Origin: Candidatus Binatia bacterium
GTDB lineage: Bacteria > Desulfobacterota > Binatia > UBA9968
Assembly: GCA_041494945.1 (NCBI GenBank)
Contig: JBGQBP010000001.1
Coordinates: 1-57,759 of the forward strand
Length of the DNA: 57,759 nucleotides
Direction: 5' to 3'
Position 1 is the stretch's first letter. Each line of letters opens with the position of its first letter. Position numbers and translations under genes: made by a program. Below, one piece after another: positions 1,451 to 54,709 of this stretch. The notes under the pieces are model-generated. The model was not told the origin of the DNA and did no database searches. It was given only the letters and a program-made list of their open reading frames with translations.

Positions 1451-1452
1451 AT

Positions 1453-5075: not shown

Positions 5076-5127
5076 TCCGAAGCTTCCCGCTCTCCAGACT
5101 AAAAGCCCAGCCAGAATGCTTTATGTA

Positions 5128-5144: not shown

Positions 5145-5192
5145 AATAATCTAATGTAGGTTCTGTACCGACTTTGCAAATGAGGAGGACAT

Positions 5193-40575: not shown

Positions 40576-40594
40576 AAGAGTAGGGTATTATACC

Positions 40595-40905
40595 CTAAGC
40601 CCAGGTGGGCTCAAACTCTTTGTCGGTGCAGGAGAAAGTGGCGATTTCCCGGAATTGTTCTAGAGCGGCTTCGAGGTCGTTGACGATCTCCTGGGCGAGA
40701 ACGTCGGGATCGGGAAGATTGTCGGAGACTTCGAGGCTCTCGTCTCTAAGCCAGAAGATGTCGAGACTGACTTTGTCGCAGTTGATTAGCGACTCGCAAT
40801 TTAGAAGCCTCGAAAAGGTTCGCGTCTCCTTTTCTAATCCTTGAATTGATCGACGCTTCAGTGAAGCCTTGGTAAATAGGATTGTAGGAGAATTCAATCC
40901 AATTA
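40595..40905 (-). pseudogene. remnant A of a type I R-M methylase (hsdM) 3' end, interrupted by a 59-bp insert at 40811-40869
   Basis: Encodes ...LINCDKVSLDIFWLRDESLEVSDNLPDPDVLAQEIVNDLEAALEQFREIA, which matches my recollection of HsdM C-termini. No methylase body lies upstream. Positions 40685-40756 are 72/72 identical to 45145-45216. Confidence 0.65.
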
Positions 40906-41056
40906 AAGGGTTAACACCTGATCTCAGCCGCCGGCTTTAGCCGATCGGCTGAAGCATCTGGTTACCGGCATGGAAGTATTTTTATCGAAGCCAACTCAAC
41001 CTAGGATCTAGAAAGACGCTATGGAAAGATTTCTACAGAACAGGTCCCAAAAATAA

Positions 41057-41467
41057 TCAGTGGCCGTCTTTCTTAAACTGCAGTATCACTTCCCCGGGGA
41101 ACTCCTGCAGCAGCTTCTTAATCGCAGCCCCCAACTCCCTGTGCGTAAACGGTTTGGCGATATAACCTTGACATCCGCTTCCTAAACATTTTTCCCTGTC
41201 TCCCGGCAAGGCGTTTACGGTAGCTGCCAATATAGGGATGCCTTTAGTCTTTGGATCATTCCGTATCAGAGAGGCCGCTTGGAGTCCGTTCATTTTAGGC
41301 AGGCGGATATCCATGACAATCAGGTCAGGAAGTTCAGAGATAGCCATCTCTACGGCCTCCACGCCATTTTTCGCCACTGTGACCTCGTAACCAAGAGACT
41401 CCAGCTCCAGCTGCATCACATCAATTGTGTCTGGATTGTCCTCCACTAAAAGAATCCGTTCGTGCAT
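41057..41467 (-). CDS. stand-alone receiver (CheY-like) response regulator
   Basis: ATG at 41467. ILLVEDNPD...DLIVMDIRLPKMNG...KP; no output domain. Confidence 0.85.
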   Translation of the reverse strand: MHERILLVEDNPDTIDVMQLELESLGYEVTVAKNGVEAVEMAISELPDLIVMDIRLPKMNGLQAASLIRNDPKTKGIPILAATVNALPGDREKCLGSGCQGYIAKPFTHRELGAAIKKLLQEFPGEVILQFKKDGH

Positions 41468-41526
41468 GAACACCTCTAAATAAAATCCCACGTACAAGTT
41501 TGGAAACAAGCAGCAGTGCCCGATGG

Positions 41527-44406
41527 CTAGCCCGTTGCGCGTCTTACCTCAGTAACTCCCCGCTCAACTTCTTCAACGGTCTCCACTGGCAGGCGAACGG
41601 TGAAAGCAGACCCCTTGCCGGGTTCGCTTTCCACCTCAACTGTCCCTCCCAGTACGTCGGTAAACTTCTTAACAATATAAAGCCCCATACCCACCCCACC
41701 GTAGCGTCTTGTCTCCGAGCTATCTACTTGACGAAACCGCTCAAAGATCAACGGCAGTGCTTCTTCTGGAATGCCTACTCCCGTGTCTGCAACTTTGAAC
41801 TCTAGGACTCCTGCTCCTGAAAGATACTTGACTGTTACAGCAACATGACCCTCAGCGGTAAATTTTATGGCATTATTAATAAGATTCTGAAGGATATGTC
41901 TGAGCTTCTCCCTGTCGATTTTCACAACCGGCAAGTCGCGGGAATAGTCCCAAATGAGGCGAACCTTTTCATTCAAGGGGATCTCGGAATCCGATCTGAG
42001 ATCGTCTAGGAACTCACGGAGATTAACCTCAGAACTCTCTACCTTCACCGCCTTAGCCTCGATGCTGGTCGTCTCCAATATCTCGTTGATCATCTTCAAT
42101 AGGTTCTCCGAGCGGCTTATCACTTTGCTCAAAGCCTCCACCTGCTTCTGGTTAATCTCCCCTAACATTCCATCCTTGATCATACCCGTATAGCCCATGA
42201 TCACGTTCAGCGGTGTTCTGAGCTCGTGCGACATGACGCTTAAAAATTCATCTTTCACCTTGTTTGCCTTCTCTAGAGCATCCCTAGAGGCTTTGAGACT
42301 ATCGAAGAGATCCCGGTTCTCTAACGCTATACCCATCTGGCGCACGATGGCCATCAGATGCTCTTCTTGACTCTCGTCGAAGTGACCCACCTCACGGCTG
42401 GCCAGGTGAATAATTCCCCGAATCTCGTTGCGTACTTTCAAGGGAAGAAACGCGCAGGAGCGAAGACCCGCTTTAAGCTGGACCTTCCCTGTCAAGCGAG
42501 GGTCGGATGCGATATCGGCTGCGATGATGGGTTCGTCCGTCTCAAACACCTGAGCTACCGCGCTGCTGGCGTCCGTCATAGCCGTCGTGCCCAGGTAGAA
42601 ATCCGGAAAGCCCCGCTGAGTGGCTAGGATGAAATTCCCTGTGGAATTGTCGCGCAGACGGATCAAAGCCGCGTCGGCCCCGGTTGCCGCTCTAAGCCTT
42701 TCAATGATTCCGTCCATAATCCCATTGATGGATTCTGCTGGACCTAAGGGAGTGAGCGCCGTATAAAGACCGGAGAGTTCTTTCAACGACCTTTCGAGGC
42801 GTTGGTTCACCGCTTCTAGTTTTTCCTTAGCAGCTCTAATTTCCTCGTAGAACTGAGAATTGTAGATCGCTATAGCTGCTTGGCCTGCCAGGCTGGTGAG
42901 AAATTCGATTTCTTCGTTGGTAAATTCATGCTCCTCTTTTGTAAAGAAGCTGAGAACTCCCAGAACCTCGCCCTTAGCGGTCAAGGGAACCCTCAGCAAG
43001 GAAACCAATCCATATTTACGGACAAACTTAGAAGATAGTGACCGTGGATCTGTTTGAACATTCCGGATTACCAGAGGAACGTTGTTTTCCGGCAACATTC
43101 TGGTAATCCCACCTCTGGATCTCGCGGTCATTTCTTTCCATTCCTTTTCATCGACATTCCTACAGGCAAAGGATTCCAACTCGCCGGTTTCTCTGTTTAA
43201 CAATCTGACCGTGGTAACGGCATACGGGAGAAAACGGTCAATCTTATCAAGCAGGACATCCAAGACGGTGCGGAGATCCAGAGTTGAGGCAATGGCCACA
43301 TCGATCTCGTGCAGAGCTTTCAGCTGCTGGTGGCGCCTTTCAAGCGACTCGGCCATTGCATCAAAAGAGCGGGCCAATTGTCCGAGTTCTCCCTTATCGT
43401 AAGATCCTCCAGCGCGCGCACCGAGGTCACCTGCAGAAAGTCTTTTTGTCGCATTGACTAAAACATTGATCCGCCGAAGCACGAATATATCGCTGCCAGT
43501 CCATGCAAAAGCCAGCATGAGGACAACAACGAGTCCAAGTCCTGCAAGGTTCACGGCAACTATCCGGTCGACGTCCGCAAACGCCTGTTTTTTAGGTATA
43601 CCTGCCCAGACATATACCGTCCCGCTCTTAGGCATGCCGCGGAGCGAAGTAAACGCATAGAGACATGGGACTCCATCTAACCCAGCCGCCTCAGTTGTGC
43701 CTTCGCGTCCAGCCAAGACGGTCTTAACAATAGAGGCCTCAGGCGCACTCTTTCCGGTTAAATTCTCCGGATCGGGATCGCGAGCTAAGATCACACCCTT
43801 ACGGTCGATCACAGTGACACTCGATCCCTCGGGTAACCGCGCTTCAGCTACGATTCGATGGAACCACGACAAATTCAGCCCAATAACCAGAACCGCGCGC
43901 ACATGACCTCTTGCATCAAGAGAAGGATAGGAAAGCGTGATAATGGGCTTCTTGCTGAAGCGGCCGATTATAAACTCGCTTACTGTGAAGTCTCGCATTT
44001 TAAGGACTTGTTGAAAATATGGCCGGTCTGAAAAGTTAACAGGTTGAGCGCCGGGAGTACCGCTGCAGAATACATCGCCGTTCGGTTTCGCCGCTGCAAT
44101 CGTCGTAAATACCTTAAACTTCCCTATGAGGTCGGAGAAGAGATTGCTACAGCCGTTGCTATCGTATTTGAGAACTTGAGGAAGCTTTGCCAGAGCCACC
44201 AGGAGCTGATGCCCTGACTCAATTAGTCGTTCATGTTCGGCTGAGAGCGCTCGAATCAGTTTTAGCGAGTCCTCTTGTGCGTCGTGGGCAGCCTGCTCCC
44301 GTTGTTTTGATGCCGTGTAATGGATCAGCCCTAATGCCGGGACAACGGAAACGAGAACGAGAAGCAACAAACGGACACGAAGACTTGAAAAGGAAAATCG
44401 CGTCAT
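41527..44406 (-). CDS. sensor histidine kinase (Cache-like periplasmic domain, HAMP, multiple GAF, HisKA, HATPase_c)
   Basis: H-box SVMSHELRTPLN, N-box NLINNAIKFT, G-boxes DTGVGI and GGVGMGLYI. The HAMP region has a LSAGDL-type motif. Start taken at the ATG at 44406 (the track gives 44451). Confidence 0.9.
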   Translation of the reverse strand: MTRFSFSSLRVRLLLLVLVSVVPALGLIHYTASKQREQAAHDAQEDSLKLIRALSAEHERLIESGHQLLVALAKLPQVLKYDSNGCSNLFSDLIGKFKVFTTIAAAKPNGDVFCSGTPGAQPVNFSDRPYFQQVLKMRDFTVSEFIIGRFSKKPIITLSYPSLDARGHVRAVLVIGLNLSWFHRIVAEARLPEGSSVTVIDRKGVILARDPDPENLTGKSAPEASIVKTVLAGREGTTEAAGLDGVPCLYAFTSLRGMPKSGTVYVWAGIPKKQAFADVDRIVAVNLAGLGLVVVLMLAFAWTGSDIFVLRRINVLVNATKRLSAGDLGARAGGSYDKGELGQLARSFDAMAESLERRHQQLKALHEIDVAIASTLDLRTVLDVLLDKIDRFLPYAVTTVRLLNRETGELESFACRNVDEKEWKEMTARSRGGITRMLPENNVPLVIRNVQTDPRSLSSKFVRKYGLVSLLRVPLTAKGEVLGVLSFFTKEEHEFTNEEIEFLTSLAGQAAIAIYNSQFYEEIRAAKEKLEAVNQRLERSLKELSGLYTALTPLGPAESINGIMDGIIERLRAATGADAALIRLRDNSTGNFILATQRGFPDFYLGTTAMTDASSAVAQVFETDEPIIAADIASDPRLTGKVQLKAGLRSCAFLPLKVRNEIRGIIHLASREVGHFDESQEEHLMAIVRQMGIALENRDLFDSLKASRDALEKANKVKDEFLSVMSHELRTPLNVIMGYTGMIKDGMLGEINQKQVEALSKVISRSENLLKMINEILETTSIEAKAVKVESSEVNLREFLDDLRSDSEIPLNEKVRLIWDYSRDLPVVKIDREKLRHILQNLINNAIKFTAEGHVAVTVKYLSGAGVLEFKVADTGVGIPEEALPLIFERFRQVDSSETRRYGGVGMGLYIVKKFTDVLGGTVEVESEPGKGSAFTVRLPVETVEEVERGVTEVRRATG

Positions 44407-44416
44407 CGAACTTGCC

Positions 44417-44617
44417 TTAAGCCTTGAAAAGGAAATCCTCTTTGGCCTCAATCCATTTTTTAAATTGACTTTCTCGAATGCGCCACTGGCCTCCGACTTT
44501 TATTGCCGGCACTTTCTTCTGATGAATCATTCTAAAAACGGTTCGCTTGGAAATCTGAAGCATCCGTGCCGCTTCTTTGAGGGTTAGAAACTCAAGCTCG
44601 GAAGAAACGCTAGACAT
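44417..44617 (-). CDS. excisionase-family (HTH_17/MerR-like) small DNA-binding protein
   Basis: LTLKEAARMLQISKRTVFRMIHQKKVPAIKVGGQWRIRESQFKKWI is the canonical HTH_17 pattern. Confidence 0.75.
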   Translation of the reverse strand: MSSVSSELEFLTLKEAARMLQISKRTVFRMIHQKKVPAIKVGGQWRIRESQFKKWIEAKEDFLFKA

Positions 44618-45090
44618 AAAGACAATTCCCCGGCGATATCTAGCAGCAAACAGCATACCGGAGACGACAAAAAGCGTATAACCTGTTGTTTCTATTTAAG
44701 ATTGTGAACCAGAGCAAGAAACAGCTCGTCCCTGGGGAGTGACAAAACTTGCCAAGCGTTCACAAAAAGGGGAACTTTTGGTTACCTTGGGATATCCTTT
44801 GGTTTCTTTGACAAGACGAGGATCAATTTGACCAAAATTAAGGTCTGTATGCGTTGCGTAGAAAAATAGAAGAGTCAAAGGTCGTTGAGCGATACCTTCG
44901 TCTGTTTGAAGAAATTACCTGGTTTATGGTGCTGCCTCGCAAGCATCGTGCAGAACGTGAAACCAAAACGCTAAGTCTCCCGGAACACGATGCCAACCAG
45001 GAATGAATGAAAACGGCTAACCAACGTAGGAAAGGTTTATCGCCGTCTAAGATCGGATTGAACGACGCTTCAGTGCAATCAACTCGGTAT

Positions 45091-45308
45091 CTAGATCCGC
45101 GAGGATTGGTGGAATTGTTCCAGAGCGGCTTCGAGGTCTTCGAAGATCTCCTGGGCGAGAACGTCGGGATCGGGAAGATTGTCGGAGACTTCGAGGCTCT
45201 CGTCTCTAAGCCAGAAAATATCGAGGCTGGCCTTGTCGCGGTTGATGAGCGATTTGTAATTTAGAAGCCTTGGGGAAATAGGATTGTAGGAGAATTCAAT
45301 TCAATCCT
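45091..45308 (-). pseudogene. remnant B of the hsdM 3' end
   Basis: Encodes RLLNYKSLINRDKASLDIFWLRDESLEVSDNLPDPDVLAQEIFEDLEAALEQFHQSSRI-stop. An in-frame TGA lies just upstream and there is no gene body. Confidence 0.65.
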
Positions 45309-45370
45309 GACATCGCCGCGTGGTTACTTGATTACCCTGTCCGCCCTTGCCGACTTAGCCAATTGCGGGC

Positions 45371-45411
45371 AAAAAAAAACCGGGGCGAACGCGCTTCGGC
45401 GTCCGCCCCGG
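45371..45411 (-). terminator. rho-independent terminator of the secreted-protein gene
   Basis: Minus strand: CCGGGGCGGACGC-CGAA-GCGCGTTCGCCCCGG followed by a T9 run. Confidence 0.8.
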
Positions 45412-45429
45412 CATACGAAACGACGGCAG

Positions 45430-46017
45430 TTAATCGCCGAAACTTACCACGAAGATTCCGGTTAACAGCGGTGTTAACGTATCAGGATGTAGAAAAACAT
45501 TGACCGTATCCCCTGCCGCCACGACGGGAAACGCGGGTGTGACGAGGTCAGGCAGCGTGCAGCCGCCGACTTTTGCGGTCAGTGTCGCAGGGGTCGGCGG
45601 GGACTTTTCGCCGACATTGACGCCGTACTCGCCATCCACTCCCGCCGGCACCAGCGGATTGGATTGATATTCGAACTCGAACTCTTTAATCACCAGCGAG
45701 CAAACGGCGTAATCACTGCCACCGCGAGCCAGGTGCATGTCATACACGTCGTCCTGAGCTGTAACCAAATCCGTCAAAATTGGACATTCCACCTCGCCCG
45801 TGAATGTTTCCGCCGCGGCTAAGGTGATGTTGTTGACCTTCTTCGTATACTTGGCCCCACCCTCACATTCGCCGGGTGCGCCCAAAGGCGGAGCGAGCTT
45901 CGCCTTGAAATGGGTTACCGTGAAGCTGCTTTGACCCTTGGCAAAACTCACCGCGGTGAGCGCCACCTGCGAAGCGAACATTACCGCTAAAAACACCGTC
46001 ATTGCCTTACCTGTCAT
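45430..46017 (-). CDS. secreted hypothetical protein
   Basis: The ATG at 46017 follows AGGAGG. Signal peptide MTGKAMTVFLAVMFASQVALTAVSFA. Four Cys residues. No family recognised. Confidence 0.6.
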   Translation of the reverse strand: MTGKAMTVFLAVMFASQVALTAVSFAKGQSSFTVTHFKAKLAPPLGAPGECEGGAKYTKKVNNITLAAAETFTGEVECPILTDLVTAQDDVYDMHLARGGSDYAVCSLVIKEFEFEYQSNPLVPAGVDGEYGVNVGEKSPPTPATLTAKVGGCTLPDLVTPAFPVVAAGDTVNVFLHPDTLTPLLTGIFVVSFGD

Positions 46018-46332
46018 ATCTTTTCCTCCTTGTCCCTTTTTCAGGGTTATTTTTTGATGAAACCTGTCAAAGCAATTCACGTACCACTACAACTGAGCAT
46101 GGATAACCTTGGTATCCGAGCGAAAACGGGTAGACACGTGGTGCCATGTTTTCCCGGCGACATCGACGCACTTGGGTCGAAAAAGCGCAGAGGCCGTCTC
46201 GCACCTGTACAATAAACGTTACTTCTACAAAGAACGTTACTTCGACCGATAGCATCCGACCTTCCTGACCGAAACAGCGACCAGGGAGCGCGCAGACTCC
46301 TACACATGTCCGAAGGGTTATTCAGACATAAG

Positions 46333-46427
46333 AAAGGTTCGCGTCTCCTTTTCTACTCCCTGAATTGATTCGACGCTTCAGTGAAGCCTTGGAAAATAGG
46401 ATTGTAGGAGAATTCAGTTCAATCCTG
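46333..46427. repeat. copy C of the cassette-junction module, about 90% identical to 40814-40905
   Basis: aaaggttcgcgtctccttttcta..tgaattgat.cgacgcttcagtgaagccttgg.aaataggattgtaggagaattca... is shared with copy A. Confidence 0.85.
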
Positions 46428-46584
46428 CGATTGAGCGTCGTAACCACCAGCGGAGAGCGCCCGGCCACTTGATCGCCTCATCCGCGCGATATAGAAGGGA
46501 CGGTGGGTGGCTAACCCTTAGCCGTACGGAACTCCCATCCGCAAACAAACCGCCGGTTTATCCTGGCGCATAAGGAGAATAAGC

Positions 46585-46692
46585 ATGAAGCAGGACGCTC
46601 GAAAAGATTTGTGGAGGCGCAAGAGAAAAAAGAAGCGCCTTGCTATGAAGAAGTACGTAGCGAAGAAGAAATCAAAGGGTGTGGTAGCGTGA
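46585..46692 (+). CDS. candidate small ORF encoding a 35-aa highly basic peptide
   Basis: TAAGGAGAA lies 5 nt upstream of the ATG. Peptide MKQDARKDLWRRKRKKKRLAMKKYVAKKKSKGVVA. It falls below the ORF-track length cut-off. Confidence 0.3.
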   Translation: MKQDARKDLWRRKRKKKRLAMKKYVAKKKSKGVVA

Positions 46693-46796
46693 AAATCCCA
46701 GGATTGAGTCGAAATTAGTTTTTTTCATCGCCTGCTCTTTTCCACCAGTCACGCATCCGTTCCAGGGCCGTGTGAATATCGCGAGCCGGGAGGTCG

Positions 46797-47072
46797 TTAA
46801 CGATAAACTTCCTCATGGCTCCCAATATCGAGCAGAATAATTTGCTTCTTTGGTGTCCTAAGCATCAGGGTGACACGGTAGGCGTGAGTCAAACTTACCG
46901 CGTGCAGACCTTCCAAAGATCCCTTGAGTGCATGCAACCGCAGGTGAGGTTGGAAAGGATCCGCTTCAAGGTCACGAAAGATTTTCCCTAGCTGTTTATT
47001 AAGTTCGGGGTGGGCACGACTAAATTTGGCTACGCTGCGGTCAAAGTGATGGGTCGTGACCAGCGCGTACAT
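46797..47072 (-). CDS. RelE/ParE-superfamily type II toxin
   Basis: 91 aa. ...LKGSLEGLHAVSLTHAYRVTLML....IILLDIGSHEEVYR is a RelE/YafQ-like C-terminus. ATGA overlap with the upstream antitoxin. Confidence 0.75.
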   Translation of the reverse strand: MYALVTTHHFDRSVAKFSRAHPELNKQLGKIFRDLEADPFQPHLRLHALKGSLEGLHAVSLTHAYRVTLMLRTPKKQIILLDIGSHEEVYR

Positions 47073-47335
47073 CAGTCTTCCAGACCGAGCTCCTCAATCA
47101 GCCTCTTGGCAGTGACGCGACGCACTCGTTTGGCCTTGACATCCTGGAGCGAGGCTTTGATTCTGGCTACGTAGGCTTCTTCCTGGGCTTCTACTAACTC
47201 GCGGTAATGTTCTTCATCCAAGACGACAAACGTCGGCTGGTCGTTTTTGATGATGTGAACGGGACCTTCTTTGAGCGCATCTTCGACTGCCTGTATGCCC
47301 CGCCGTTTAATCTCTCTGGCCGCTATGGTCTTCAT
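47072..47335 (-). CDS. Phd/YefM-family antitoxin
   Basis: 87 aa. N-terminal ...EGPVHIIKNDQPTFVVLDEEHYRELVE is typical of Phd/YefM. Confidence 0.75.
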   Translation of the reverse strand: MKTIAAREIKRRGIQAVEDALKEGPVHIIKNDQPTFVVLDEEHYRELVEAQEEAYVARIKASLQDVKAKRVRRVTAKRLIEELGLED

Positions 47336-47343
47336 TTCGGGTC

Positions 47344-47363
47344 TCCATTCAGTACTAAAAATG
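47344..47363. promoter_or_regulatory. palindrome CCATT-N10-AATGG (contains AGTACT) just upstream of the antitoxin start; candidate TA operator
   Basis: Read directly, 9 nt upstream of the ATG at 47335. Confidence 0.3.
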
Positions 47364-47664
47364 GTACTCTATACAGTCTTCAATTGCAAGGTTCCTTTAA
47401 GTCTGCGCTGCTTCGATCCTTCGCGCACGATCACAGACACCATCCGGCTCGGCGGGATGTTGATCGGGATCGAACCGCAACCTGATCTCGCGGAACTCTT
47501 TGAACTGTGAAAAACGGCCGCACATTTAAAGTCCCTGCGTCTGGTTACTAAACAGCCGTCAAGATAATTTGTCCCCTTTTAAGATGTTCGTCAAACCCGG
47601 GCCAGCTCAATTGTATTTATTTCCTTGGCGTTGTATGGATCAGGCGAAAGAAGGGAGGAGTCAA

Positions 47665-47817
47665 ATGACTATCGGAGCAATATCGATCGGAATCGTTCTG
47701 TTGGCAATCTGGCTTATCCTCACTGGCCTTTCATCCCTGATGCGCTTGGGAATCCCCTCTCAGGCGATGGGGATTCTGGCGCTATTAGCAGGGATCCTGC
47801 TGTTAGTCGGAAGATAG
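47665..47817 (+). CDS. small two-TM membrane protein (50 aa)
   Basis: The ATG at 47665 follows GGGAGGAG. MTIGAISIGIVLLAIWLILTGLSSLMRLGIPSQAMGILALLAGILLLVGR. Confidence 0.5.
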   Translation: MTIGAISIGIVLLAIWLILTGLSSLMRLGIPSQAMGILALLAGILLLVGR

Positions 47818-47848
47818 CTTTGGGTCGAAGAGGGGCCGGGACCAGCTA

Positions 47849-48093
47849 TCAACTCTTTTCGGGCTCTAGGCTTTCTTTTCCTAAGTCATTCGCGATTTCA
47901 CGGAATTGTTCGAGGGCGGCTTCGAGGTCTTCGACCCCTCGACGCGTTCTACGGGCCGCCCGTAGGTCCTGGCTCGGGGTCGTCCTGAGCGAGGCTGAGC
48001 GAGTCGAAGGACGACGATTTCCTGGAAGAGAACGTTGGGATCGGGAAGATTGTCGGAGTCTTCCAGGCTCTCGTCTCTGAGCCAGGAAGATAG
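47849..48093 (-). pseudogene. remnant D of the hsdM 3' end; retains the apparent natural stop but is frame-disrupted and carries an 81-bp insertion
   Basis: One frame encodes WLRDESLEDSDNLPDPNVLFQEIV. After the insertion, another frame encodes EDLEAALEQFREIANDLGKESLEPEKS-stop. It abuts the stop codon of the helicase gene. Confidence 0.65.
47935..48015. mobile_element. MITE-like insertion of about 81 bp with two internal hairpins
   Basis: Absent from remnants A and B at the equivalent position (gtcttcga|agatctcc). Contains CTACGGG-CCG-CCCGTAG and GTCGTCCT-N21-AGGACGAC. Confidence 0.5.
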
Positions 48094-48095
48094 CG

Positions 48096-51000
48096 TTAGT
48101 TCTCACCAAAGCCTTCCCTCCCCGCTTTTTCGAAAATGCGTCTTACCTTACGGGCATTTGATGGAGACGGCTCTTTCTTTTTTTCCAGATCGTGCGCAGC
48201 CCAATAGAGAATCTTGCGGTCGGCTTCTTGCAGCTTGCCGTTTTTTGATGCCCACGTGCGCAATCGGCGAAAAGTGCCAGGTCCTTTCTTGATCATCCAC
48301 TCTACGTCATCATCGGTCGGCGGAGGGGAAGAGGGGTTGTCGTGTGGGCGAGTAAAGCCATCATGTGCAAATGAACTAGCGTGTGGCTTCAACGTCTCAC
48401 CGTCAGCCTTTGGCTTTGGCCTGCTGTCATTATTCTCCGTAAAATTGTTTGCGCTTTCGCGAGGATTTTCATCCGGACTGGGAGATTCTTCCGGTTGCCA
48501 TTGTCTCCGTAGTTCCTCTGCCCGTCGGATGATACGCTCCCTGAGTTCGTTGCTTCCTGTCTCAGGACTTTCTTCAGCGGAAATTTTGTTTTCTGGCAGG
48601 ATTCCAAGAGCCTCTAACCTATGGAACACCGGCTCCAACGCTCGGTCCTCGTCGCGGAAGAAAAGGCTGCCGCGAATCCGCTCAAACGTCCAACCAAGTC
48701 TTATGAGAATTGCTTCCCGTTCAAGATCCTCTTGGAGTCTTTCGGGGCCGTGGAACTGCTCCCCGTCGCATTCGATCGCCAACCGTCGTCCATTTCCGAC
48801 GACAACCAAGTCGATGTAGTACGCGCCTGCTTGATGTTGGGGAATGACATTGTAGCCGCGTTCCATTAGACGGCGTAGAACGGCCCCTTCAAACACCTTG
48901 GAACGCGGATCGACCTTCGCGAGACGCTCCAGTAACTCGCGCTCCCATGCTTCCGGGTCGAGAGAATGCTCGATAAGTCGGCGGCGATAATCTCCAGCTT
49001 GCAGGTCAGTTTCGTGATTGAGGCTGTGAACGACCCACATCTGGTTTCGTGCTCGGCTTGCAGCAACATTGAAGCGCTTTTTAAAAATCCTCTTCGACCC
49101 TTCTTGGCGCATCGGCAGCGGCGGCTGCTCAGGTGGAGAGTCTACCACTGACAAGAACATGACATCGCGTTCGTCGCCCTGGAACTGTGCCGAATCTCCA
49201 CAAAGGATTTGCCTCCGCCGATACTCGGCGGGTTCCACCCGTTGCCGCAACACACTGTCTACTTTCAAAGCCTGCTTATTCCCTACAAGTGATATCACGC
49301 CGAAAGTCGTGGGCTTGCCCTCGTCGTTCTTTGCATACTCCGGTTGCTCAATGGCGGCACAAATCAGCGACGCGATGGTTTCGGCCTCCACCTCATTCAC
49401 GTTGTCCCCACGCTCGTGTCCGGTCTGAACTCGGTAGTGAACTACGTGCGGATTAAGCGGAACTGAGGATGCCTCGCGGAGCGGTTTGATTTCGCCTTTG
49501 TAAGAGAGATCGTTGCTAAAGGCGATGATGTCGGGCGCACAGCGGAAGTGTTCGGTCAGCCGAATCACGCTGCCGAATGACGGCTCGGCCAATTCGTAAA
49601 CTGAAGTTTCGCCATCATAAGCCAAGTGGCCCGGCACACCTGATAAGTAGGTGTTGATAAGTTTCAGAACTTCGGTCTTGTCCTGAAAAACCGTTGGTGT
49701 AACTTGCTCCTTGTCGCCAACCACGACTACCTGACATCCAAGATACAGAGCAAACAATGCTGTCGGATCGCACTGGCTCGCTTCATCAATGATCACGACG
49801 TTAAAACGAGTGTTGCGTGGGTCAAAAGTCTCTGCCACCTCGGCAAGCGGCATGATCCACACCGGAACGGCTTGCTTCGCCAGTTCCATCTCTTTTCGCG
49901 CTGCTTGGAGGAAGTGTTGATCGAGGACACCCTTCCGGCTCTTTGTCAGCTTATCACGGTACAATGCGTAATGTCCGAGCGCACGCCGCTGTTCTGACGT
50001 GACCTGACGGATTTGGTTCATCCACGTTTGCTTTTCGACAAGGTGCGCGGTGACGTCAAGAAGTTGTTGGCAGAGAGCTTCAATGCGTTGCTGCAATTGG
50101 TCGAGCGACACGCTCGCCCGTTTTTCTAACTCATCATGAAGCTGCCGCCATTCCCAAGCGGAGTAGGGGTCGCCCGGTGGCTGCGGCTTACTATGTTGTA
50201 CCAGTCGATTCTCAATCGCCGACGCCCAAGCGGGTGCCGAGCAAGCGAGACGAGCCAAAAATTCGCGCCGGTTTACCAAGTCCAATTCCAAGTTCTTTAA
50301 TCGTAAAAGTTCTTCGTATGCCGATTGATAGTCTAGGGGCGACGCATCGAGCATGGCTTGGCGCAACCGCTGGGTCGCTTGTGCTTCGGACTGACCTAAC
50401 TCTGGTACCGTCTCATACCATGCACGCAATTTTGCCAGAAGTCGCTTATGACGAAGCCAACCGGTCCGCGATTGAAGAATCGGGCCGAGGTCGCCGAGAA
50501 CCGCACGACGGATCCGGCGAAGCTCCGCGTTCTCTCCCGCCTCTGGTGCAGTTGAGTCTAGGAATACAGACCATTGAAAGCCGAGGCGCTGAAACTCATC
50601 TTCGAGCGGTTGCCATGTAACGACGTGCCATTCCAAACAATCTTGGATTTGCGGCACATACTGTTTACAGACCTGCTCTGGCTTTTCGCCCAGTTCGGAA
50701 CACGCGAGAGCACCCTGACGAGCCATCAGTTGTTCCCAGCGTGCAACCAGCTCTAAGCGAAGCTGACTCATCCGCAGCCGTGCGCGTACTGCACGCAAGT
50801 GAGTCGAATTGTTCAACTCGAAAGACCGGTTGCCAACACGAGTTTTTTCTTTGAACGCAAACCAATGGCGTTTGCTCAGCTTCGCGACCAGACCAAATGA
50901 CTTACCGGCTTCGTGATGTTGAATGATCTCGTCAACGAGCGCCAACAGTTCATGCGGAGGGCGTGGGTCGGAAACTTCCGGGCCGTGTTGTATGACCAGA

Positions 51001-53087
51001 GCATAACACTCCCCCACCTCACGCCAAGTGGACTCAATCAATTCCGCCAGCCATTCCCAAAGACGGCGGGCCTGCTCGCCGTCTCGCCCTGCTTGAATAG
51101 CGTCCAGTTGCCAAGGGGCGCTATCGCGGAGAAAATCTATCGTCTTGCTAGCCAGCTCTAACATACGGTCAAACTCGGCTAAGTCGTTCGGTTCCCGCGT
51201 AGAGTCCCAAAGCTCCTCGCGCAGGCGAAGGTTCTGGCCAGCCAACACAGTCATTTCCTCAACGGCGCTCCGAAATTCATTCGGCGTCGGCAATGTACTC
51301 AGGTCTGGCCGACTACGTGCCAATTCGCGTTCGTCAGCAAGAGCGACGCGAGCGTTGGTTTGGTAAAGCGCTACCACTTCCGCGTGGGATAGAGGCAGAG
51401 ATTCGCCGAGATTCACCGGGCTGGGAATCCAGTCATCTTTGTCGGTCCCTTGCTTCACGTGCTTGGCCGCGTCAATAGGGCGAGTTGATTTTCCGCCGAA
51501 GACCACATCCCGCACTTCATCTTGTCTTGCATCGAGAAGTCGCTTACGCGCGTCACGCAGCGCTTCAAGGATACGCGTTCGCTCTCCACGTAATCGCTGT
51601 GCGTCTCGTTCGAGAAGACGGTCATCGTCGCCCAGGCGAACGTGAATCTTCTGCACCGACGCTTGAAGCTCTTCCTGACTCTGCTTGTCGTTATGAAGAA
51701 CACTGATACAAAGCGGCTGAAGTGGCTCGACGACTTTCTCCCTAAGTACGCGCAACGCTTTGGGTGTATGGGCGGTGACGAGCACGCGCTTGCCCTGCGC
51801 TAACAAATGGCCGAGAAGATTCGCAATGGTGTGCGTTTTTCCAGTGCCGGGCGGCCCTTGCACGAGGACACAATCCCTACGAGCGAGCTGTTTGGCAATT
51901 TCAAGCTGCTCGCGATTGGCAGTCTTGCTCAAGAGAACATCGTCATCCTCGTTCCCGAACGAAAGCCCGCCGGAGTGAGATTCCTCCTGAGCGACAAGCC
52001 TCTCCTCCAGCCCAAGGATTTGAAGCAGCGAAGGCGGAAAAACATCACGGCTTGCGATATCCTCCAGCACCAAATCAAAGACATTACCCCGTCCAGTTCG
52101 CCGTGCCCGCATGAAAATCACCGGCTGGCGCATCATAACCGGGCCGCTCTGCTCTTGGTTGGCTTTCTGCTGATTAAAGAAGGATAAGTCAGGCTGCGAC
52201 GATGACACCACACTTTTACTAGCGGGCGCCAGGCCACTCTCAACGACTGTGCCGCCTGTTGGGAAAAGTCCTTGGACCAGCCGTCGAAGGAAACCGTCAG
52301 TGTCCTCGGCTCCGAGGGGCGCAAATTCCGCTTTTTTCTGCTCGTCCGCACATCTGGCAAGTTGCGAATGGTTTACTCCGGGAATGGCGCGAAGAAATTC
52401 CATGTAAAGTTCCGGAAGCTGATCACGCTTTCGGAAAATAAACTGTGGCTGCCGCTTTTCCGGATAGAATTCCAATTCCAGCTTTTGTAACAGGACGGGA
52501 TGTCGGAAGTCGCCGGCCGGATCCGAACAATAGAAAAGACCATCGCCAACTAGCAGTTCAATCTTCTCGCCTTCTCGCTCTAGGACGCCATACCATTCAT
52601 AAACGGTTTCAAAGAGAGTCAGAGTTTCTCTCGCCGGGCGCTCGTTTATTACCCACTGCTCGCGTTGCTGCTGCCATGTGTGAAAAACCGACAACCGACC
52701 AGCATCTGATTCAAACTGTTCAATACGTGTATTCCCGTCTTCGCCGATAACATTGCGCGTTGACTGGACCTCTAATTTTCCAGGATGCTCCTGCCAACCT
52801 GGTTTGAGCCAAGCGAGCAAAGCTGGAGGGGGTGACGGACACTTCGTAATGGAGGGACGACTCAAATGCAGCACGATATCTTTATCGTCCGTGTCATCGC
52901 TAGATTTACCCATATCCCAATGCAGCTCCACGGAAGAATGGGAAGGTAAGTCTTTCAGCCACAAGAAGTACGGCTGTTGAGTGATATTCCGAACTGGCGG
53001 ATAGCGAAGATCTGTGTAGGCTTTAAGGAATTCAAAAAGCTTTCTCAATCGGTCGCGTGCAGGTTGCGTGTTTGGCTGGTCGCTCAT
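48096..53087 (-). CDS. 1663-aa SF1 (Upf1/DNA2-like, AAA_11/AAA_12) helicase fused to a Vsr/DUF559-type endonuclease domain; candidate defence protein
   Basis: Walker A LVQGPPGTGKTHT (nt 51834-51857), motif II VVIIDEASQ (nt 49773-49787), TEHFRCAPDI, FQGDERDVMFLSVV, RFNVAASRARNQMWVV, and nuclease core YYIDLVVVGNGRRLAIECDGEQFH. Confidence 0.85.
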   Translation of the reverse strand: MSDQPNTQPARDRLRKLFEFLKAYTDLRYPPVRNITQQPYFLWLKDLPSHSSVELHWDMGKSSDDTDDKDIVLHLSRPSITKCPSPPPALLAWLKPGWQEHPGKLEVQSTRNVIGEDGNTRIEQFESDAGRLSVFHTWQQQREQWVINERPARETLTLFETVYEWYGVLEREGEKIELLVGDGLFYCSDPAGDFRHPVLLQKLELEFYPEKRQPQFIFRKRDQLPELYMEFLRAIPGVNHSQLARCADEQKKAEFAPLGAEDTDGFLRRLVQGLFPTGGTVVESGLAPASKSVVSSSQPDLSFFNQQKANQEQSGPVMMRQPVIFMRARRTGRGNVFDLVLEDIASRDVFPPSLLQILGLEERLVAQEESHSGGLSFGNEDDDVLLSKTANREQLEIAKQLARRDCVLVQGPPGTGKTHTIANLLGHLLAQGKRVLVTAHTPKALRVLREKVVEPLQPLCISVLHNDKQSQEELQASVQKIHVRLGDDDRLLERDAQRLRGERTRILEALRDARKRLLDARQDEVRDVVFGGKSTRPIDAAKHVKQGTDKDDWIPSPVNLGESLPLSHAEVVALYQTNARVALADERELARSRPDLSTLPTPNEFRSAVEEMTVLAGQNLRLREELWDSTREPNDLAEFDRMLELASKTIDFLRDSAPWQLDAIQAGRDGEQARRLWEWLAELIESTWREVGECYALVIQHGPEVSDPRPPHELLALVDEIIQHHEAGKSFGLVAKLSKRHWFAFKEKTRVGNRSFELNNSTHLRAVRARLRMSQLRLELVARWEQLMARQGALACSELGEKPEQVCKQYVPQIQDCLEWHVVTWQPLEDEFQRLGFQWSVFLDSTAPEAGENAELRRIRRAVLGDLGPILQSRTGWLRHKRLLAKLRAWYETVPELGQSEAQATQRLRQAMLDASPLDYQSAYEELLRLKNLELDLVNRREFLARLACSAPAWASAIENRLVQHSKPQPPGDPYSAWEWRQLHDELEKRASVSLDQLQQRIEALCQQLLDVTAHLVEKQTWMNQIRQVTSEQRRALGHYALYRDKLTKSRKGVLDQHFLQAARKEMELAKQAVPVWIMPLAEVAETFDPRNTRFNVVIIDEASQCDPTALFALYLGCQVVVVGDKEQVTPTVFQDKTEVLKLINTYLSGVPGHLAYDGETSVYELAEPSFGSVIRLTEHFRCAPDIIAFSNDLSYKGEIKPLREASSVPLNPHVVHYRVQTGHERGDNVNEVEAETIASLICAAIEQPEYAKNDEGKPTTFGVISLVGNKQALKVDSVLRQRVEPAEYRRRQILCGDSAQFQGDERDVMFLSVVDSPPEQPPLPMRQEGSKRIFKKRFNVAASRARNQMWVVHSLNHETDLQAGDYRRRLIEHSLDPEAWERELLERLAKVDPRSKVFEGAVLRRLMERGYNVIPQHQAGAYYIDLVVVGNGRRLAIECDGEQFHGPERLQEDLEREAILIRLGWTFERIRGSLFFRDEDRALEPVFHRLEALGILPENKISAEESPETGSNELRERIIRRAEELRRQWQPEESPSPDENPRESANNFTENNDSRPKPKADGETLKPHASSFAHDGFTRPHDNPSSPPPTDDDVEWMIKKGPGTFRRLRTWASKNGKLQEADRKILYWAAHDLEKKKEPSPSNARKVRRIFEKAGREGFGEN

Positions 53088-53329
53088 ATCGCTATTGTGC
53101 TGGAAATGTAATTACCCATTCGTTTTTTAGCCTCGATCACTCCCGCCGCGCTGCCGTTCACGTAGAGAAGGTAGTCCGCGAAGCCGTGACCTGTCCTCAA
53201 CGGAAAGTTACGGATAGCCAAGCCGCAAGAAGCCGAGATATTCGCTTCATTGAGATTGCGAACCTCCCAGCCGGCGCTGGCGAACATGCGGTCGATATTT
53301 TCGCGCGCTTGGTCTTCGGGTGTCGGCAT
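53084..53329 (-). CDS. 81-aa ORF equal to the N-terminal (HSDR_N-like, PD-(D/E)xK) part of a type I restriction R subunit; truncated remnant or retained small gene
   Basis: PEDQARENIDRMFASAGWEV...FPLRTGHGFADYLLYVNGSAAGVIEAKK matches my recollection of HsdR N-termini. Similarity ends right after EAKK. The stop overlaps the helicase start (ATGA). Confidence 0.55.
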   Translation of the reverse strand: MPTPEDQARENIDRMFASAGWEVRNLNEANISASCGLAIRNFPLRTGHGFADYLLYVNGSAAGVIEAKKRMGNYISSTIAI

Positions 53330-53437
53330 ATTGGAAACGTCTCTGAAGACGTAATTCTGCCATTTTACGCGAACAGCGGGGAATCTGGCAAGCGGTTTAA
53401 ATGCAGGTGATAAGGATCGGCAAGCGCCGATTTCTAA

Positions 53438-54709
53438 TCACGCCTTCTTCGGAATCTTGAGCTGCTGGCCGATGGCGAGACGATGGGCGTTGCTCATGCC
53501 GTTAGCTTGCTGGATCGAGCCGATCGAGACTCGATAGTTGCGGGCGATCTTGGAGAGGGTTTCGCCGGGGGCGACGTGATGGAGAACCCAATTGAGTGAA
53601 GTTTTCGAAGCCGCGACGATGGTGGCCGCGGCGGGCGATGAGCCGACGATTCTTTTATACGCGGCAATGAGACTCTCGAGCTTGTCGGGCGGCGCCTTGA
53701 CGCGGTAGCCTCCGGGGAGGTCTTTGACCTTGGAGCTCACCGCCGGGTTCCATTCGAGAAATTGCGCGTGGGAAATATCGGTCGGCTTGAGCAAGGCCGT
53801 GATCGAGACGTTCCGCCCCACAGTCAGCTCTTCGAGCGTCAACGGAGAGTGATACTCCAGGGTCGGAAAAAATTCTCCGCTTCTCCGCGCCACGTCCACC
53901 GCGGCTAAAAACTCCGTGTAGAAGCTCTTGGAAGCAAACCCAAACGACGGGCCCTGGTAGCGCTGAATGATATCGACCAGGTTGCTGGAGCCCACGTCGG
54001 AGACGGCCCGCAGCATCCCTTCCCGGCCATGATTATAAGCGGTGAGCGCCAACGGCCAGTTGCCCAGAGCCTCGTAGTTTTGCTTCAAGAACCGCGCGGC
54101 GGCGCGGGTCGATTCGATCGGATCTCTCCGCTCGTCCAAGGTGGGACCGACGCGCATGAATTTCTTTCCCGTGGAAGGCATGAACTGCCACATCCCTAAA
54201 GCGCCCACACTGGAGCGGGCGTTGAGATTGAAAGAGGATTCCACGAGAGGCAAATACGCGATTTGTTCCGGCACCCCTTCTTCGCGCATGATTTTCTGCA
54301 TCTGATCGAGATAGCGCCGCGAGAGCGCGAGCCCGGCAGCATAGCGTTCTTTGACGCCTCGCTGCGCCCTTACCCGCTCTTCGGCCACCGCAAACCCTTC
54401 CGCCTGGCCGATCGCGTCGATCTCCTGCTTGATGAGCTTGCGCGCGTTGCTGTTGTCGTCGATATTGACGACTTTGTAGATTTTCAGCGGATCTTGCCGG
54501 TCGTGAAAGATGACCTCCCCGGTGCCGTAACGCGTGAATACGAGCCGCCAAAATTCCACCGCGTTCTCCAATCCGGGGAGCACGGGGAAAGCATCCTCTT
54601 GCGCCGACAACGCGCCGGGCCGCCCAAGGCAGACCGAGAGCGCCAGAGCCGAGAACAGGCAGACGAGCAGTTTTGCGGATCGGTGGTTAGCCATATAAAA
54701 TTGACGCAT
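53438..54709 (-). CDS. MltD-like lytic transglycosylase with a C-terminal LysM domain; start 54709 or 54694
   Basis: SLT core VESSFNLNARSSVGALGMWQFMPSTG...AYNHG. LysM HHVAPGETLSKIARNYRVSIGSIQQANGM...LAIGQQLKIP. Confidence 0.85.
   Translation of the reverse strand: MRQFYMANHRSAKLLVCLFSALALSVCLGRPGALSAQEDAFPVLPGLENAVEFWRLVFTRYGTGEVIFHDRQDPLKIYKVVNIDDNSNARKLIKQEIDAIGQAEGFAVAEERVRAQRGVKERYAAGLALSRRYLDQMQKIMREEGVPEQIAYLPLVESSFNLNARSSVGALGMWQFMPSTGKKFMRVGPTLDERRDPIESTRAAARFLKQNYEALGNWPLALTAYNHGREGMLRAVSDVGSSNLVDIIQRYQGPSFGFASKSFYTEFLAAVDVARRSGEFFPTLEYHSPLTLEELTVGRNVSITALLKPTDISHAQFLEWNPAVSSKVKDLPGGYRVKAPPDKLESLIAAYKRIVGSSPAAATIVAASKTSLNWVLHHVAPGETLSKIARNYRVSIGSIQQANGMSNAHRLAIGQQLKIPKKA

Follow-up and report, generated by a model that had tools for sequence, protein, structure and literature searches.

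An island between mltD and ccsA that is probably a degenerate type I restriction-modification locus turned into a cassette array bounded by hsdM tails

Gene content and limits of the island

The window, i.e. the whole stretch of DNA analysed, comprises 57,759 nt from a Candidatus Binatia bacterium. It carries, between the core genes mltD and ccsA, a 12.7-kb island (~40620-53337) that is compositionally foreign. Its GC content is 0.521 (40620-53337) versus 0.570 in the left flank and 0.595 in the right flank, and its tetranucleotide distance to the flanks is 0.021 versus 0.006-0.009 for equal-size flank chunks. These profiles (52.1% against 57-59.5% GC) bear out the lower GC claimed in a first, sequence-only reading of this DNA. 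The features of the island are listed below; positions in the hsdM tail are negative numbers, the count starting at the last base of the stop codon and running upstream.

40576-40639, minus strand: right island junction, native ccsA-upstream sequence with a TATAAT-like box
40640-40905, minus strand: tail copy A, with hsdM homology at the DNA level over 40640-40795 (-188 to -33) and at the protein level to 40831
41057-44656, minus strand: signalling cassette (HTH_17 protein, histidine kinase, single-domain response regulator)
45093-45307, minus strand: tail copy B, hsdM positions -188 to -7 plus ~35 nt of 5' extension
45370-46307, minus strand: secreted-protein cassette (216-aa secreted protein, 76-aa ORF upstream)
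46333-46425, minus strand: unit C, the 5' extension of an A-type unit, cut off before the conserved tail
46426-46707, minus strand: spacer segment, common to L011 (92.8% identity) and L160 (82.8%)
46797-47335, minus strand: toxin-antitoxin cassette (Phd/YefM-type antitoxin, YafQ/RelE-type toxin)
47569-47817, plus strand: small membrane-protein cassette, on the strand opposite to the tails
47871-48092, minus strand: tail copy D, beginning 3 nt past the helicase stop codon
48096-53087, minus strand: helicase-nuclease gene, encoding a 1663-aa SF1 helicase (AAA_11/AAA_12) with an MTES_1575/DUF559 nuclease domain
53084-53329, minus strand: hsdR 5' remnant, 81-aa ORF (Pfam HSDR_N, PADLOC REase_I)
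53338-53437, no strand: left island junction, intergenic, after the mltD stop codon (blastn)

The three co-oriented minus-strand copies of the hsdM 3' end (A, B and D) noticed in the first reading are real, zero being expected by chance, but the fourth, partial unit C had been overlooked. The identity of these tails, as initially proposed, is upheld by three comparisons: copy A matches positions 412-475 of 487 of PADLOC MTase_I (E 4e-13) and residues 457-500 of EcoKI HsdM (PDB 2y7c), and residues 434-497 of an intact 498-aa HsdM used as tblastn query are matched in A, B and D. As initially stated, the tails have no gene body: the same query detected no hsdM body anywhere in the window, and no hsdS is detectable anywhere in the window.

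The 5' extension of copy A reaches 40905, the end of the whole repeat unit. The ORF first assigned to A (40595-40905) does contain an hsdM tail, but its last ~40 nt (~40584-40619) are native ccsA-upstream sequence, common to L010 (40585-40617) and L013 (40584-40619). At its 3' end, A joins the ccsA promoter region through a junction orthologous to the one in L011_T3. Copy B lacks 57 nt internally, between AGGCTTC microrepeats, and its 3' end is frame-disrupted; unit C matches the 5' extension of A (40814-40905) at 94-95% identity. The 72/72-nt identity between A and B (40685-40756 and 45145-45216), verified base by base, is the maximal identical run, A and B being otherwise 9-13% diverged. Copy D, originally described as diverged and disrupted, is indeed interrupted, by a discrete insertion of 76 nt (47936-48011) with a 4-nt GTCG duplication at its sides, which is also found in three other genomes (L011_T3, L075c and L081). 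This insertion separates hsdM positions -153 to -74 (48012-48092) from positions -77 to -13 (47871-47935); the natural hsdM stop is kept.

At the other end of the island, residues 1-69 of the hsdR ORF align with the same residues of HsdR from 11 other loci at 58-66% identity (tblastn), in agreement with the survival of an hsdR 5' end proposed earlier. The stop codon of this ORF overlaps the ATG of the next gene, the helicase-nuclease gene, which sits where the rest of hsdR, hsdS and the hsdM body are missing. The order hsdR 5' end ... hsdM 3' end is canonical for the type I family concerned. The island is likely to be a degenerate type I restriction-modification locus that now forms a cassette array delimited by hsdM tails.

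The cassettes are very diverse. The helicase-nuclease resembles the defence candidates PDC-S37 and Hhe, and its homologue in L164/L165 (34-38% identical) is also directly followed by an orphan tail. The toxin-antitoxin pair has a homologue directly downstream of an orphan tail in L132. The small membrane-protein cassette also occurs in L081. Taken with the 77 nt at the 3' side of tail D, it shows 96.6% identity to L163 and L100, versus 92% for the core flanks. The spacer holds on its plus strand an ORF for a very basic 35-aa peptide, and its homology in L011 stops exactly at the start of unit C. The secreted-protein cassette, bordered by C and B, which both have the 5' part of the repeat unit, includes an intrinsic-terminator-like hairpin followed by a T-run (~45370-45410); the 216-aa protein has no Pfam match. 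The signalling cassette encodes a 974-aa histidine kinase (dCache-HAMP-GAF-GAF-HisKA-HATPase), and cassettes encoding single-domain REC proteins also come after hsdM in L080 and L081. The first reading named hsd loci as known hot spots for embedded defence genes; the cassettes do not carry only defence genes.

Variability of the site and tail arrays at other loci

The mltD/ccsA site was ancestrally empty. In the more distant relatives L012-L016 and L027, mltD abuts ccsA without any island. The comparison of this interval in relatives, suggested in the first reading, also revealed other cassettes in the close relatives L011, L010, L160 and L163, which, like the window, have different contents at the same site between hsdM tails. 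On the left side, homology to the sister strain L163 stops at 53337 and homology to L160, L012 and L013 at ~53437-53447 (blastn). In L011, an HsdR C-terminus and a YgjP peptidase persist at the site. This locus carries a tandem [tail+rhomboid] unit twice and L163 a single tail-rhomboid-tail; the doubling probably arose by unequal crossing-over.

Other environmental contigs of the same hsdM family harbour 2-8 co-oriented tail copies separating cassettes, the kind of arrays flanked by repeated hsdM 3' ends that the first reading suggested looking for:

L075: 6 tail copies in 8 kb
L073: 4 tail copies
L081: intact hsdM then 7 orphan tails
L090: 3 tail copies
L100: 3 tail copies
L083, L091, L123, L159: 2 tail copies each

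No tail array was found in ~1 Mb of control ccsA loci. The architecture is widespread within the hsdM family concerned; all sampled loci carry this one family, are metagenome contigs and may stem from one broad clade. Cassettes recur across loci in different orders and belong to a shared pool (DUF4926, NMT1 substrate-binding protein, rhomboid, small membrane protein, REC, GIY-YIG-RAMA, PDC-S37-like helicase). Such a recurring layout suggests that genes are shuffled by a system for which no recombinase was found nearby; no published description of hsdM-tail cassette arrays was found.

Among 31 within-array pairs of orphan tails, differences are distributed 167/131/370 over the three codon positions. 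The third-position fraction is 0.55, versus 0.66 for intact-intact pairs, and a uniform expectation is rejected (p 4e-33, the pairs not being independent). This bias shows that the tails come from different functional hsdM alleles and not from local duplication followed by decay. Furthermore, orphan tails are usually not nearest to the resident intact hsdM. The tails within one array are therefore of independent allelic origin.

Recombination in the tails and competing explanations

The tails are supported as putative recombination points by segments common to several strains, which start or stop in or next to a tail, as expected from the recombination anchor initially proposed. In loci sharing a cassette, homology ends at differing points: identity between the window and L163 or L100 is 96.6% from tail position -77 onward, homology between L011 T2 and L100 stops at ~-23, and that between L073 and L075 at ~-29. 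The right end of the L075-specific segment, at tail position -125, reads to us as a likely microhomology joint. A and L011_T3 have their tail/ccsA junction in common, the insertion-bearing variant lying 7 kb off in the window as D. The identical A/B core, which gene conversion would probably explain, is counted as evidence for recombination between tails.

From these sequence comparisons, it seems likely that cassettes accumulate and are shuffled by recombination in the conserved hsdM 3' end, both homologous and of an illegitimate, homology-anchored kind. The last ~170 nt of this gene, encoding ...INRDKASLDIFWLRDESLE.SDNLPDPDVLAQEIVEDLEAALEQFREIA, would plausibly serve as a portable stretch of homology. 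A type I locus would have entered the empty mltD/ccsA intergenic site and later turned into an array of tail-delimited cassettes. DNA from other arrays or from other hsd loci of the same family would recombine inside a resident tail or at its edge. Homology would be used on both sides in some events (Campbell-type insertion of a circle, double crossover of a tail-cassette-tail segment or unequal crossing-over); others would combine homology on one side with a microhomology joint on the opposite side. Each would add, remove, duplicate or swap a cassette, leaving a tail from a different functional hsdM allele. In the window, the helicase-nuclease gene would have replaced hsdR codon 70 through hsdM position -153, and the cassettes between D and A would have entered through recombination in a tail already abutting the ccsA promoter. 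We infer that host homologous recombination does the work without any dedicated recombinase; tails in one array are 76-90% identical, which is a poor substrate for RecA-type recombination. The nature of the recombination intermediates and any adaptive role are likewise inferred. The repeated overwriting of an ancestral hsdR...hsdM locus, each event leaving one tail copy, as first envisaged, agrees with the canonical gene order and with recombination at the tails, but the site was ancestrally empty and the array looks more like accretion and shuffling of tail-borne cassettes than pure overwriting.

A site-specific cassette system (integron/SCC-like), in which a recombinase from another part of the genome would act on a site in the hsdM tail to insert or excise circular one-tail cassettes, is rather unlikely. 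It would account for the gene-then-tail arrangement, the tail typically starting no more than ~70 nt past the preceding stop codon, for the co-orientation of cassettes and tails, with orphans downstream of an intact hsdM in L081, L083 and L090, and for the clustering of orphan 5' ends at -170 to -222. Neither this clustering nor the short stop-to-tail distance is predicted by simple homologous recombination, and a site-specific process could be the source of both regularities; we attribute both to the variable linker that lies ahead of the conserved block and to longer repeats being unstable. In two insertion-free pairs, homology also ends at the 3' edge of the tail (-23 and -29, see above), but other boundaries lie at -77 and -125, and the gene linked with the tail lies upstream in some units, downstream in others (tail + GIY-YIG-RAMA in L081 and L164). 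Furthermore, in agreement with the first reading, no integrase or resolvase was found among the island ORFs (Pfam) or in the array-locus gene tables (precomputed Pfam for some loci), and a single XerC sequence had no tblastn match in ~1.8 Mb of loci. The tails show no conserved secondary structure and, among 62 intact hsdM genes, no excess of synonymous-site conservation; neither an Rfam hit nor a tRNA was found.

It is improbable that a single hsdM remnant gave rise to the copies within the locus (through tandem duplication, slippage or unequal crossing-over), unrelated DNA being inserted between them later. Such a purely local origin fits the tandem [tail+rhomboid] duplication in L011, the lineage-specific 5' extension common to A, B and C, the A/B core and the slightly greater proximity of the window copies to each other (86-87%) than to copies from other loci. 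However, it does not fit the third-position enrichment of within-array differences, orphans that are often nearer to the intact hsdM of other loci than to the resident gene, or the insertion-bearing variant and A-type extension common to unrelated arrays (L075, L081, L164); the tail copies of one array also tend not to group together.

Serial decay of successive complete type I systems in one hot spot, each worn down to its last gene and an hsdM tail, is slightly less probable again. Hot spots commonly carry type I loci (review PMC12707154), and both the different functional alleles and the hsdR remnants at the site would be expected. However, it would take as many as seven near-identical deletions (L081, L075), each leaving only ~170 nt of hsdM and a neighbouring gene, no hsdS, hsdR or hsdM-body remnants lie between tails, and the same cassettes in different orders are left unexplained. 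Finally, a function of the repeats themselves, as a small HsdM C-terminal peptide modulating methylase assembly or as a cis-regulatory element after each cassette, is very improbable: the conserved block is uninterrupted in 32/49 orphans, public data list many as ORFs of 60-100 aa and substitutions are biased to third positions, but 17/49 (B and D among them) have frameshifts or stop codons, 5' ends and start codons vary, and neither a structured RNA signal nor an Rfam match was found.

Relationships with known systems

Homology-facilitated illegitimate recombination, in which a one-sided anchor promotes the integration of foreign DNA in naturally transformable bacteria, has been described as a laboratory and population-genetic process. 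The proposed events would resemble it, with one junction in a homologous anchor (the tail) and, in our reading of the L075-specific segment, the other at a microhomology. To our knowledge, it has never been described as building ordered arrays round one conserved gene end.

Defence genes embedded in type I loci include PrrC and the rlo genes. Embedded genes were catalogued by Payne et al. 2024 (bioRxiv 10.1101/2024.01.29.577857), who give no mechanism and in whose text the words 'recombination' and 'truncated' are absent. The PDC-S37/Hhe-like helicase-nuclease, PDC-S14-like GIY-YIG-RAMA, AbiEi and toxin-antitoxin pairs in or beside type I genes recall these embedded genes. However, the host system is degenerate here, much of the cargo is unrelated to defence and hsdM tails bound the cassettes.

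In the orphan arrays of polymorphic toxin loci (cdiA-CT, rhs-CT and mafB-CT), modules that each start with a conserved-region fragment also lie downstream of a full-length gene. This fragment supplies the homology by which modules are swapped or deleted in a RecA-dependent way. It continues in frame into an alternative toxin tip, behind which comes an immunity gene, whereas the extreme hsdM 3' end is unfused and separates unrelated genes.

Successive elements likewise pile up at a gene 3' end in the case of SCC, at rlmH (orfX), and of genomic islands, at tRNA and other genes. In SCC, the gene is a conserved methyltransferase gene, and direct repeats of its 3' end demarcate composite islands with variable cargo. 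However, the repeats of such islands are 15-20-bp core sites cut by element-borne Ccr or tyrosine recombinases, whereas those described here are ~170 nt long, 76-90% identical and derived from different alleles, with no recombinase present.

Integrons (IntI, attI, attC; CALIN when devoid of integrase) display similar co-oriented cassettes of one to three genes with very mixed functions, a repeated element of ~60-190 nt a short way after each cassette, a fixed anchor gene upstream of the array and a cassette pool common to different genomes but variable in order. They differ in that hsdM-tail arrays have as their repeat a protein-coding gene end, conserved by sequence and not by structure, with no IntI-type recombinase found, no attC-like fold and no fixed homology boundaries. 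By analogy, hsdM-tail arrays would work like an integron without being one.

Composition of the island and identity of its repeats

The region between ccsA and mltD had been described as an island of lower GC content. Over its full length, from the ccsA start (40575) to the mltD stop (53438), its GC content is 52.1%, lower than that of the flanks (57.0% and 59.5%), and its tetranucleotide distance from them is 0.021 against 0.006–0.009 among flank pieces of equal size. The three co-oriented gene tails that the sequence-only reading had placed on the minus strand were recovered by repeat finding, pattern searches giving a chance expectation of zero, and a fourth, partial unit has to be added.

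40640–40905, minus strand: tail copy A
45093–45307, minus strand: tail copy B
46333–46425: partial unit C, which shares the 5' extension of A and lacks a tail
47871–48092, minus strand: tail copy D, interrupted by an insertion
53084–53329: 5' remnant of hsdR (81-aa ORF)

The assignment of these tails to the C-terminus of HsdM, the type I methylase, is borne out by profile, structure-database and tblastn matches, which agree. Indeed, copy A matches positions 412–475 of the 487 of PADLOC MTase_I (E 4e-13) and aligns with residues 457–500 of EcoKI HsdM. An intact 498-aa HsdM from another locus (L081) matches the window by tblastn through its residues 434–497 in A, B and D (80–86% identity), with no match beyond these tails. 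The ORF at A, taken as a whole for an hsdM tail, is one except for its last ~40 nt, which are native ccsA-upstream DNA. The 72-nt core common to A and B (40685–40756 and 45145–45216) contains no mismatch and cannot be extended without one. The disruption noticed in D is real and can be refined to a single, discrete insertion of 76 nt with a GTCG duplication on its flanks.

The remnant proposed as the 5' end of hsdR also stands: it matches HsdR residues 1–69 in eleven other loci, in which the hsdM tail follows 1.3–9.5 kb downstream of hsdR, both being on one strand. Its identity was settled by tblastn against the HsdR genes of these related loci; a search against the PDB gave no match. No hsdS was found in the window by tblastn, which detects only HsdR 1–69 and three copies of HsdM 434–497, that is, not the intact hsdR, hsdM and hsdS of a functional type I system.

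Outside the island, the intergenic region between the glutamyl-tRNA reductase and porphobilinogen deaminase genes (38383–38470) carries AT-rich nested inverted repeats of TGCAAA(A/G)TGCAAA motifs, with 28-nt arms 86% and 20-nt arms 95% complementary, which could be an operator or attenuator.

A hypervariable site and tail arrays in other loci

The comparison of the ccsA-to-mltD interval among relatives, suggested by the sequence-only reading, reveals that the island is absent from distant relatives and that its contents vary among close ones. In six genomes (L012, L013, L014, L015, L016 and L027; ccsA 63–84% identical), mltD is the direct neighbour of ccsA and has the same orientation, and relatives that are 92–97% identical hold other contents at this site. 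Judged from these alignments, the site was empty before the island was inserted, and it is hypervariable. The island thus displays atypical composition, absence from relatives and content varying among close strains, as genomic islands do. The contents found in relatives are as follows.

L011: HsdR C-terminus (PADLOC REase_I, E 2e-34), YgjP peptidase, tail, rhomboid, tail, rhomboid, NMT1 substrate-binding protein, MBL hydrolase, RidA, tail, ccsA
L163: mltD, 87-aa ORF, tail, rhomboid, tail, small membrane-protein cassette as in the window
L160: mltD, AbiEi, second copy of the mltD 3' end, partial tail, B-like tail, rhomboid
L010: unrelated gene adjoining ccsA, no tail

In L160, the final ~154 nt of mltD are directly duplicated and bound the AbiEi cassette beside this gene (L160 6148–6301 and ~5035–5188, the latter corresponding to window 53427–53580), so that at this hot spot the 3' end of a second gene acts as the hsdM tail does. 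An ORF of 35 aa (MKQDARKDLWRRKRKKKRLAMKKYVAKKKSKGVVA; window 46560–46670, plus strand), extremely basic and annotated as a gene in the contig L003, lies within a spacer kept in two other arrays with 83–93% conservation (L011 ~4640–4820; L160 6499–6835).

An assembly artefact was considered and rejected. Contigs whose ccsA is identical, found in three JGI samples and in one NCBI MAG, reproduce the window arrangement, and its recovery in independent samples rules out a one-off misassembly. Tail arrays also occur in apparently long-read contigs. Contigs with identical ccsA tend to stop at the repeats and, since metagenome contigs break at them (L001–L009), such regions are fragmented systematically in MAGs.

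The search for other cassette arrays bounded by repeated hsdM 3' ends was likewise carried out and found them in several loci. Orphans, i.e. tails without an hsdM body, were counted from DNA with nhmmer, using a DNA profile of the tail, and not from protein matches. Arrays are present in 7 of the 80 loci of a peptide-based metagenome scan, short contigs notwithstanding. With the tail profile, control loci around ccsA in other genomes (~1 Mb) gave no copy, and the 31 records of a plasmid database that carry this tail family hold one copy each and no array. The following three loci carry arrays.

L075: six co-oriented tails within 8 kb, after hsdR and YgjP, with a tail behind most gene groups
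L073: four tails, one being the end of an intact hsdM
L081: intact hsdM, REC, tail, ATP-grasp, tail, DUF350, tail, NMT1 substrate-binding protein, tail, GIY-YIG-RAMA (PDC-S14-like) and two ORFs, tail, DUF4926 and one ORF, tail, Ldh_2

Of these, L081 shows the layout most clearly. From locus to locus, the same cassettes turn up in various orders and beside various neighbours: DUF4926, NMT1 substrate-binding protein, rhomboid, small membrane protein, single-domain REC, GIY-YIG-RAMA and PDC-S37-like helicase-nuclease. The tail usually starts at most ~70 nt past the stop codon of the co-oriented gene ahead of it, and the gap to the gene that follows varies more. From the loci compared, the tail-delimited architecture is general in this hsdM family.

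The impression that all top protein matches are short orphans is partly an artefact of split genes. Indeed, the proteins P0011, P0022 and P0120 each come from the C-terminal ORF of a full-length hsdM gene that is broken by frameshifts in long-read assemblies, and such splits make short HsdM C-terminal proteins look too numerous in public collections. In L073, L074 and L079 (ENA ERZ250395xx contigs, apparently long-read), full-length hsdM and hsdR are split into two or three ORFs, probably by indel errors.

Among the cassettes, membership of the PDC-S37/Hhe defence candidates would call for an SF1 helicase core, a C-terminal PD-(D/E)xK (MTES_1575/DUF559) nuclease and a family HMM match. The 1663-aa protein of the window, which may belong there, carries AAA_11, AAA_12 and MTES_1575, its N-terminal 390 residues lying outside assigned Pfam domains; it matches PDC-S37 (E 7e-57, covering residues 1009–1525 only) and Hhe (E 3e-33). 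The helicase-nuclease of loci L164/L165, 34–38% identical to it, likewise has an orphan tail directly behind. The L164 protein (2–3538) bears a GreA/GreB C-terminal domain (residues 970–1043) after the nuclease domain, which the window protein lacks.

Probable recombination in the hsdM 3' end and competing explanations

The reading that we consider probable is that a type I locus degenerated and became an array of cassettes bounded by tails, which homologous recombination in the conserved hsdM 3' end would build and reshuffle, homology-anchored illegitimate recombination in the same segment also contributing. Several junctions bear on it (tail positions are counted back from the last base of the hsdM stop codon). 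Between the window and the loci L163/L100, identity is 96.6% from −77 through the membrane-protein cassette, against 92.3% in the core flank, and upstream of −77 the sequences show no relationship. A and one of the L011 tails, L011_T3, have orthologous junctions with the ccsA promoter. The latter bears a 76-nt insertion whose window counterpart sits in D, 7 kb from A; on the simplest reading, the cassettes from D to A would have entered by a crossover in an ancestral tail that bore the insertion, at a point 3' of it. In the pairs L011_T2/L100 and L073/L075, the upstream cassette and its tail are common, and homology stops at ~−23 and ~−29. Furthermore, a 1.7-kb segment specific to L075 starts at the 3' edge of one tail, and its right end can be read as a microhomology joint at −125 of another, the pattern expected from anchor-plus-illegitimate recombination. 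The boundaries of homology between loci thus fall at −23, −29, −77 and −125.

Exchange between repeats within a locus also appears to have left its marks. In L011 (1238–3502), a ~1.19-kb unit consisting of an hsdM tail and a rhomboid gene is present in tandem, and L163 carries a single unit between two tails; as read from the two loci, this doubling is what unequal crossing-over classically produces where repeats are direct. A and B differ at 9–13% of sites outside their 72-nt identical tract, which suggests gene conversion. Apart from the repeats, the HTH_17 gene of the window (44417–44656; excisionase-family fold), whose product matches PADLOC mad1 (E 1e-11), shares 35 nt with the start of the kinase gene. 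Its counterpart in L002 (4–240), a contig of the NCBI MAG, is only 82% identical and the neighbouring kinase 99.5%, which suggests that a recombination boundary separates the two.

The 76-nt insertion, at tail position −77, has imperfect terminal inverted repeats (CCTTCGACTCGCTC / GAACGCGTCGAGGG), its flanking duplication being 4 nt long. It is conserved in four different genomes (window 47936–48011; L011 6372–6448; L075 ~7195–7267; L081 ~4823–4892), always within a tail and each time with a different cassette ahead, and no further copy was found in the window and 166 loci. The duplication and inverted repeats would fit a multicopy MITE, yet the occurrence is restricted to tails.

That a trans-acting site-specific recombinase builds the arrays is unlikely. 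The observation fitting it best is the clustering of orphan 5' ends, which lie between −170 and −222 in ~26 of 42 cases. This falls at or in a variable linker (−290 to −195) that, in an entropy analysis of 62 intact hsdM genes, separates the conserved block of the tail from the catalytic domain. The clustering is attributed to alignments stopping in this linker and to instability of longer repeats. No enzyme was found: the earlier statement that the island encodes no integrase or transposase holds for the Pfam domains of its ORFs, integrase, resolvase and transposase domains being absent from these and from the gene tables of the array loci, and tblastn with XerC (approximate query sequence, limited sensitivity) gave no match in the window and 166 loci. 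Nor was a conserved secondary structure found in 15 tails by RNAalifold (−8.4 kcal/mol, with a positive, i.e. unfavourable, covariation term), and there was no Rfam match and no tRNA. Given this weak fold without covariation, and with the insertion in D folding no better than shuffled sequence (z 0.07), an attC-like or structured-RNA reading of the tails is rejected. Finally, the tail of intact hsdM genes displays no special conservation at the DNA level, its third-position entropy (1.0–1.55 bits) being no lower than that of the rest of the gene (0.95–1.5 bits).

Purely local duplication of the tails is still less probable. Duplication followed by decay is expected to spread differences evenly over codon positions, and such a spread is rejected (p 4e-33, for 31 mutually non-independent pairs): within arrays, orphan pairs differ at 167, 131 and 370 first, second and third positions, a third-position fraction of 0.55, compared with 0.66 between intact hsdM genes. 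Furthermore, orphans are often nearer to the intact hsdM of other loci than to the resident gene; for example, the orphan L081_3745 is 79% identical to its resident hsdM and 85% to that of L082. Together, these data indicate independent allelic origins, most of the divergence among tails of one array having arisen while each belonged to a functional hsdM. Serial decay of whole type I systems, one after the other, appears very unlikely as the source of the tails. That they act as a functional peptide or cis-element is most unlikely. Frameshifts or stop codons interrupt 17 of 49 orphans, which are therefore not a conserved small gene.

Meaning of the arrays and relation to known systems

Type I loci are known to harbour embedded defence genes (bioRxiv 10.1101/2024.01.29.577857), this work proposing no mechanism and not mentioning repeats. 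No description of hsdM-tail repeat arrays was found in open-access papers and preprints, although an earlier one may exist. More tentatively than the homology-based origin of the arrays, it may be proposed that the hsdM 3' end is the recombination module of a recombinase-independent analogue of integrons, in which host homologous recombination would capture, stockpile, reorder and exchange between genomes cassettes for defence, toxin-antitoxin, signalling and transport functions. The arrays offer a concrete, testable route for genes entering restriction-modification loci, and the analogy, if true, would supply the mechanism of this embedding. A ~170-nt coding segment, kept for protein function, would double as portable homology for the build-up and movement of cassettes, a protein-coding constraint being co-opted as a recombination site. 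Bacteria would then have a second, mechanistically distinct way to integron-like cassette stores, and repeated hsdM tails would be a simple sequence signature by which to find, in uncultured bacteria, accessory regions of very high variability and new defence candidates.

Diversity-generating retroelements are a poor match: the island ORFs encode no reverse-transcriptase domain and the differences among tails follow codon position. The arrays resemble integrons by their anchor gene, by co-oriented, diverse cassettes each followed by a repeat (window, L075, L081, L100 and L163) and by a common cassette pool. They differ from them by the lack of an adjacent IntI, according to the island ORFs, the array-locus gene tables and the XerC search, and of attC hairpin sites with their fold. 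With SCC elements and islands accreting at tRNA genes, they share the build-up at the 3' end of a gene, but they have neither a short core site nor a recombinase, their boundaries are scattered and tails within one array are 76–90% identical. Like the arrays of orphan modules at cdiA and rhs loci, they use part of the main gene as homology.
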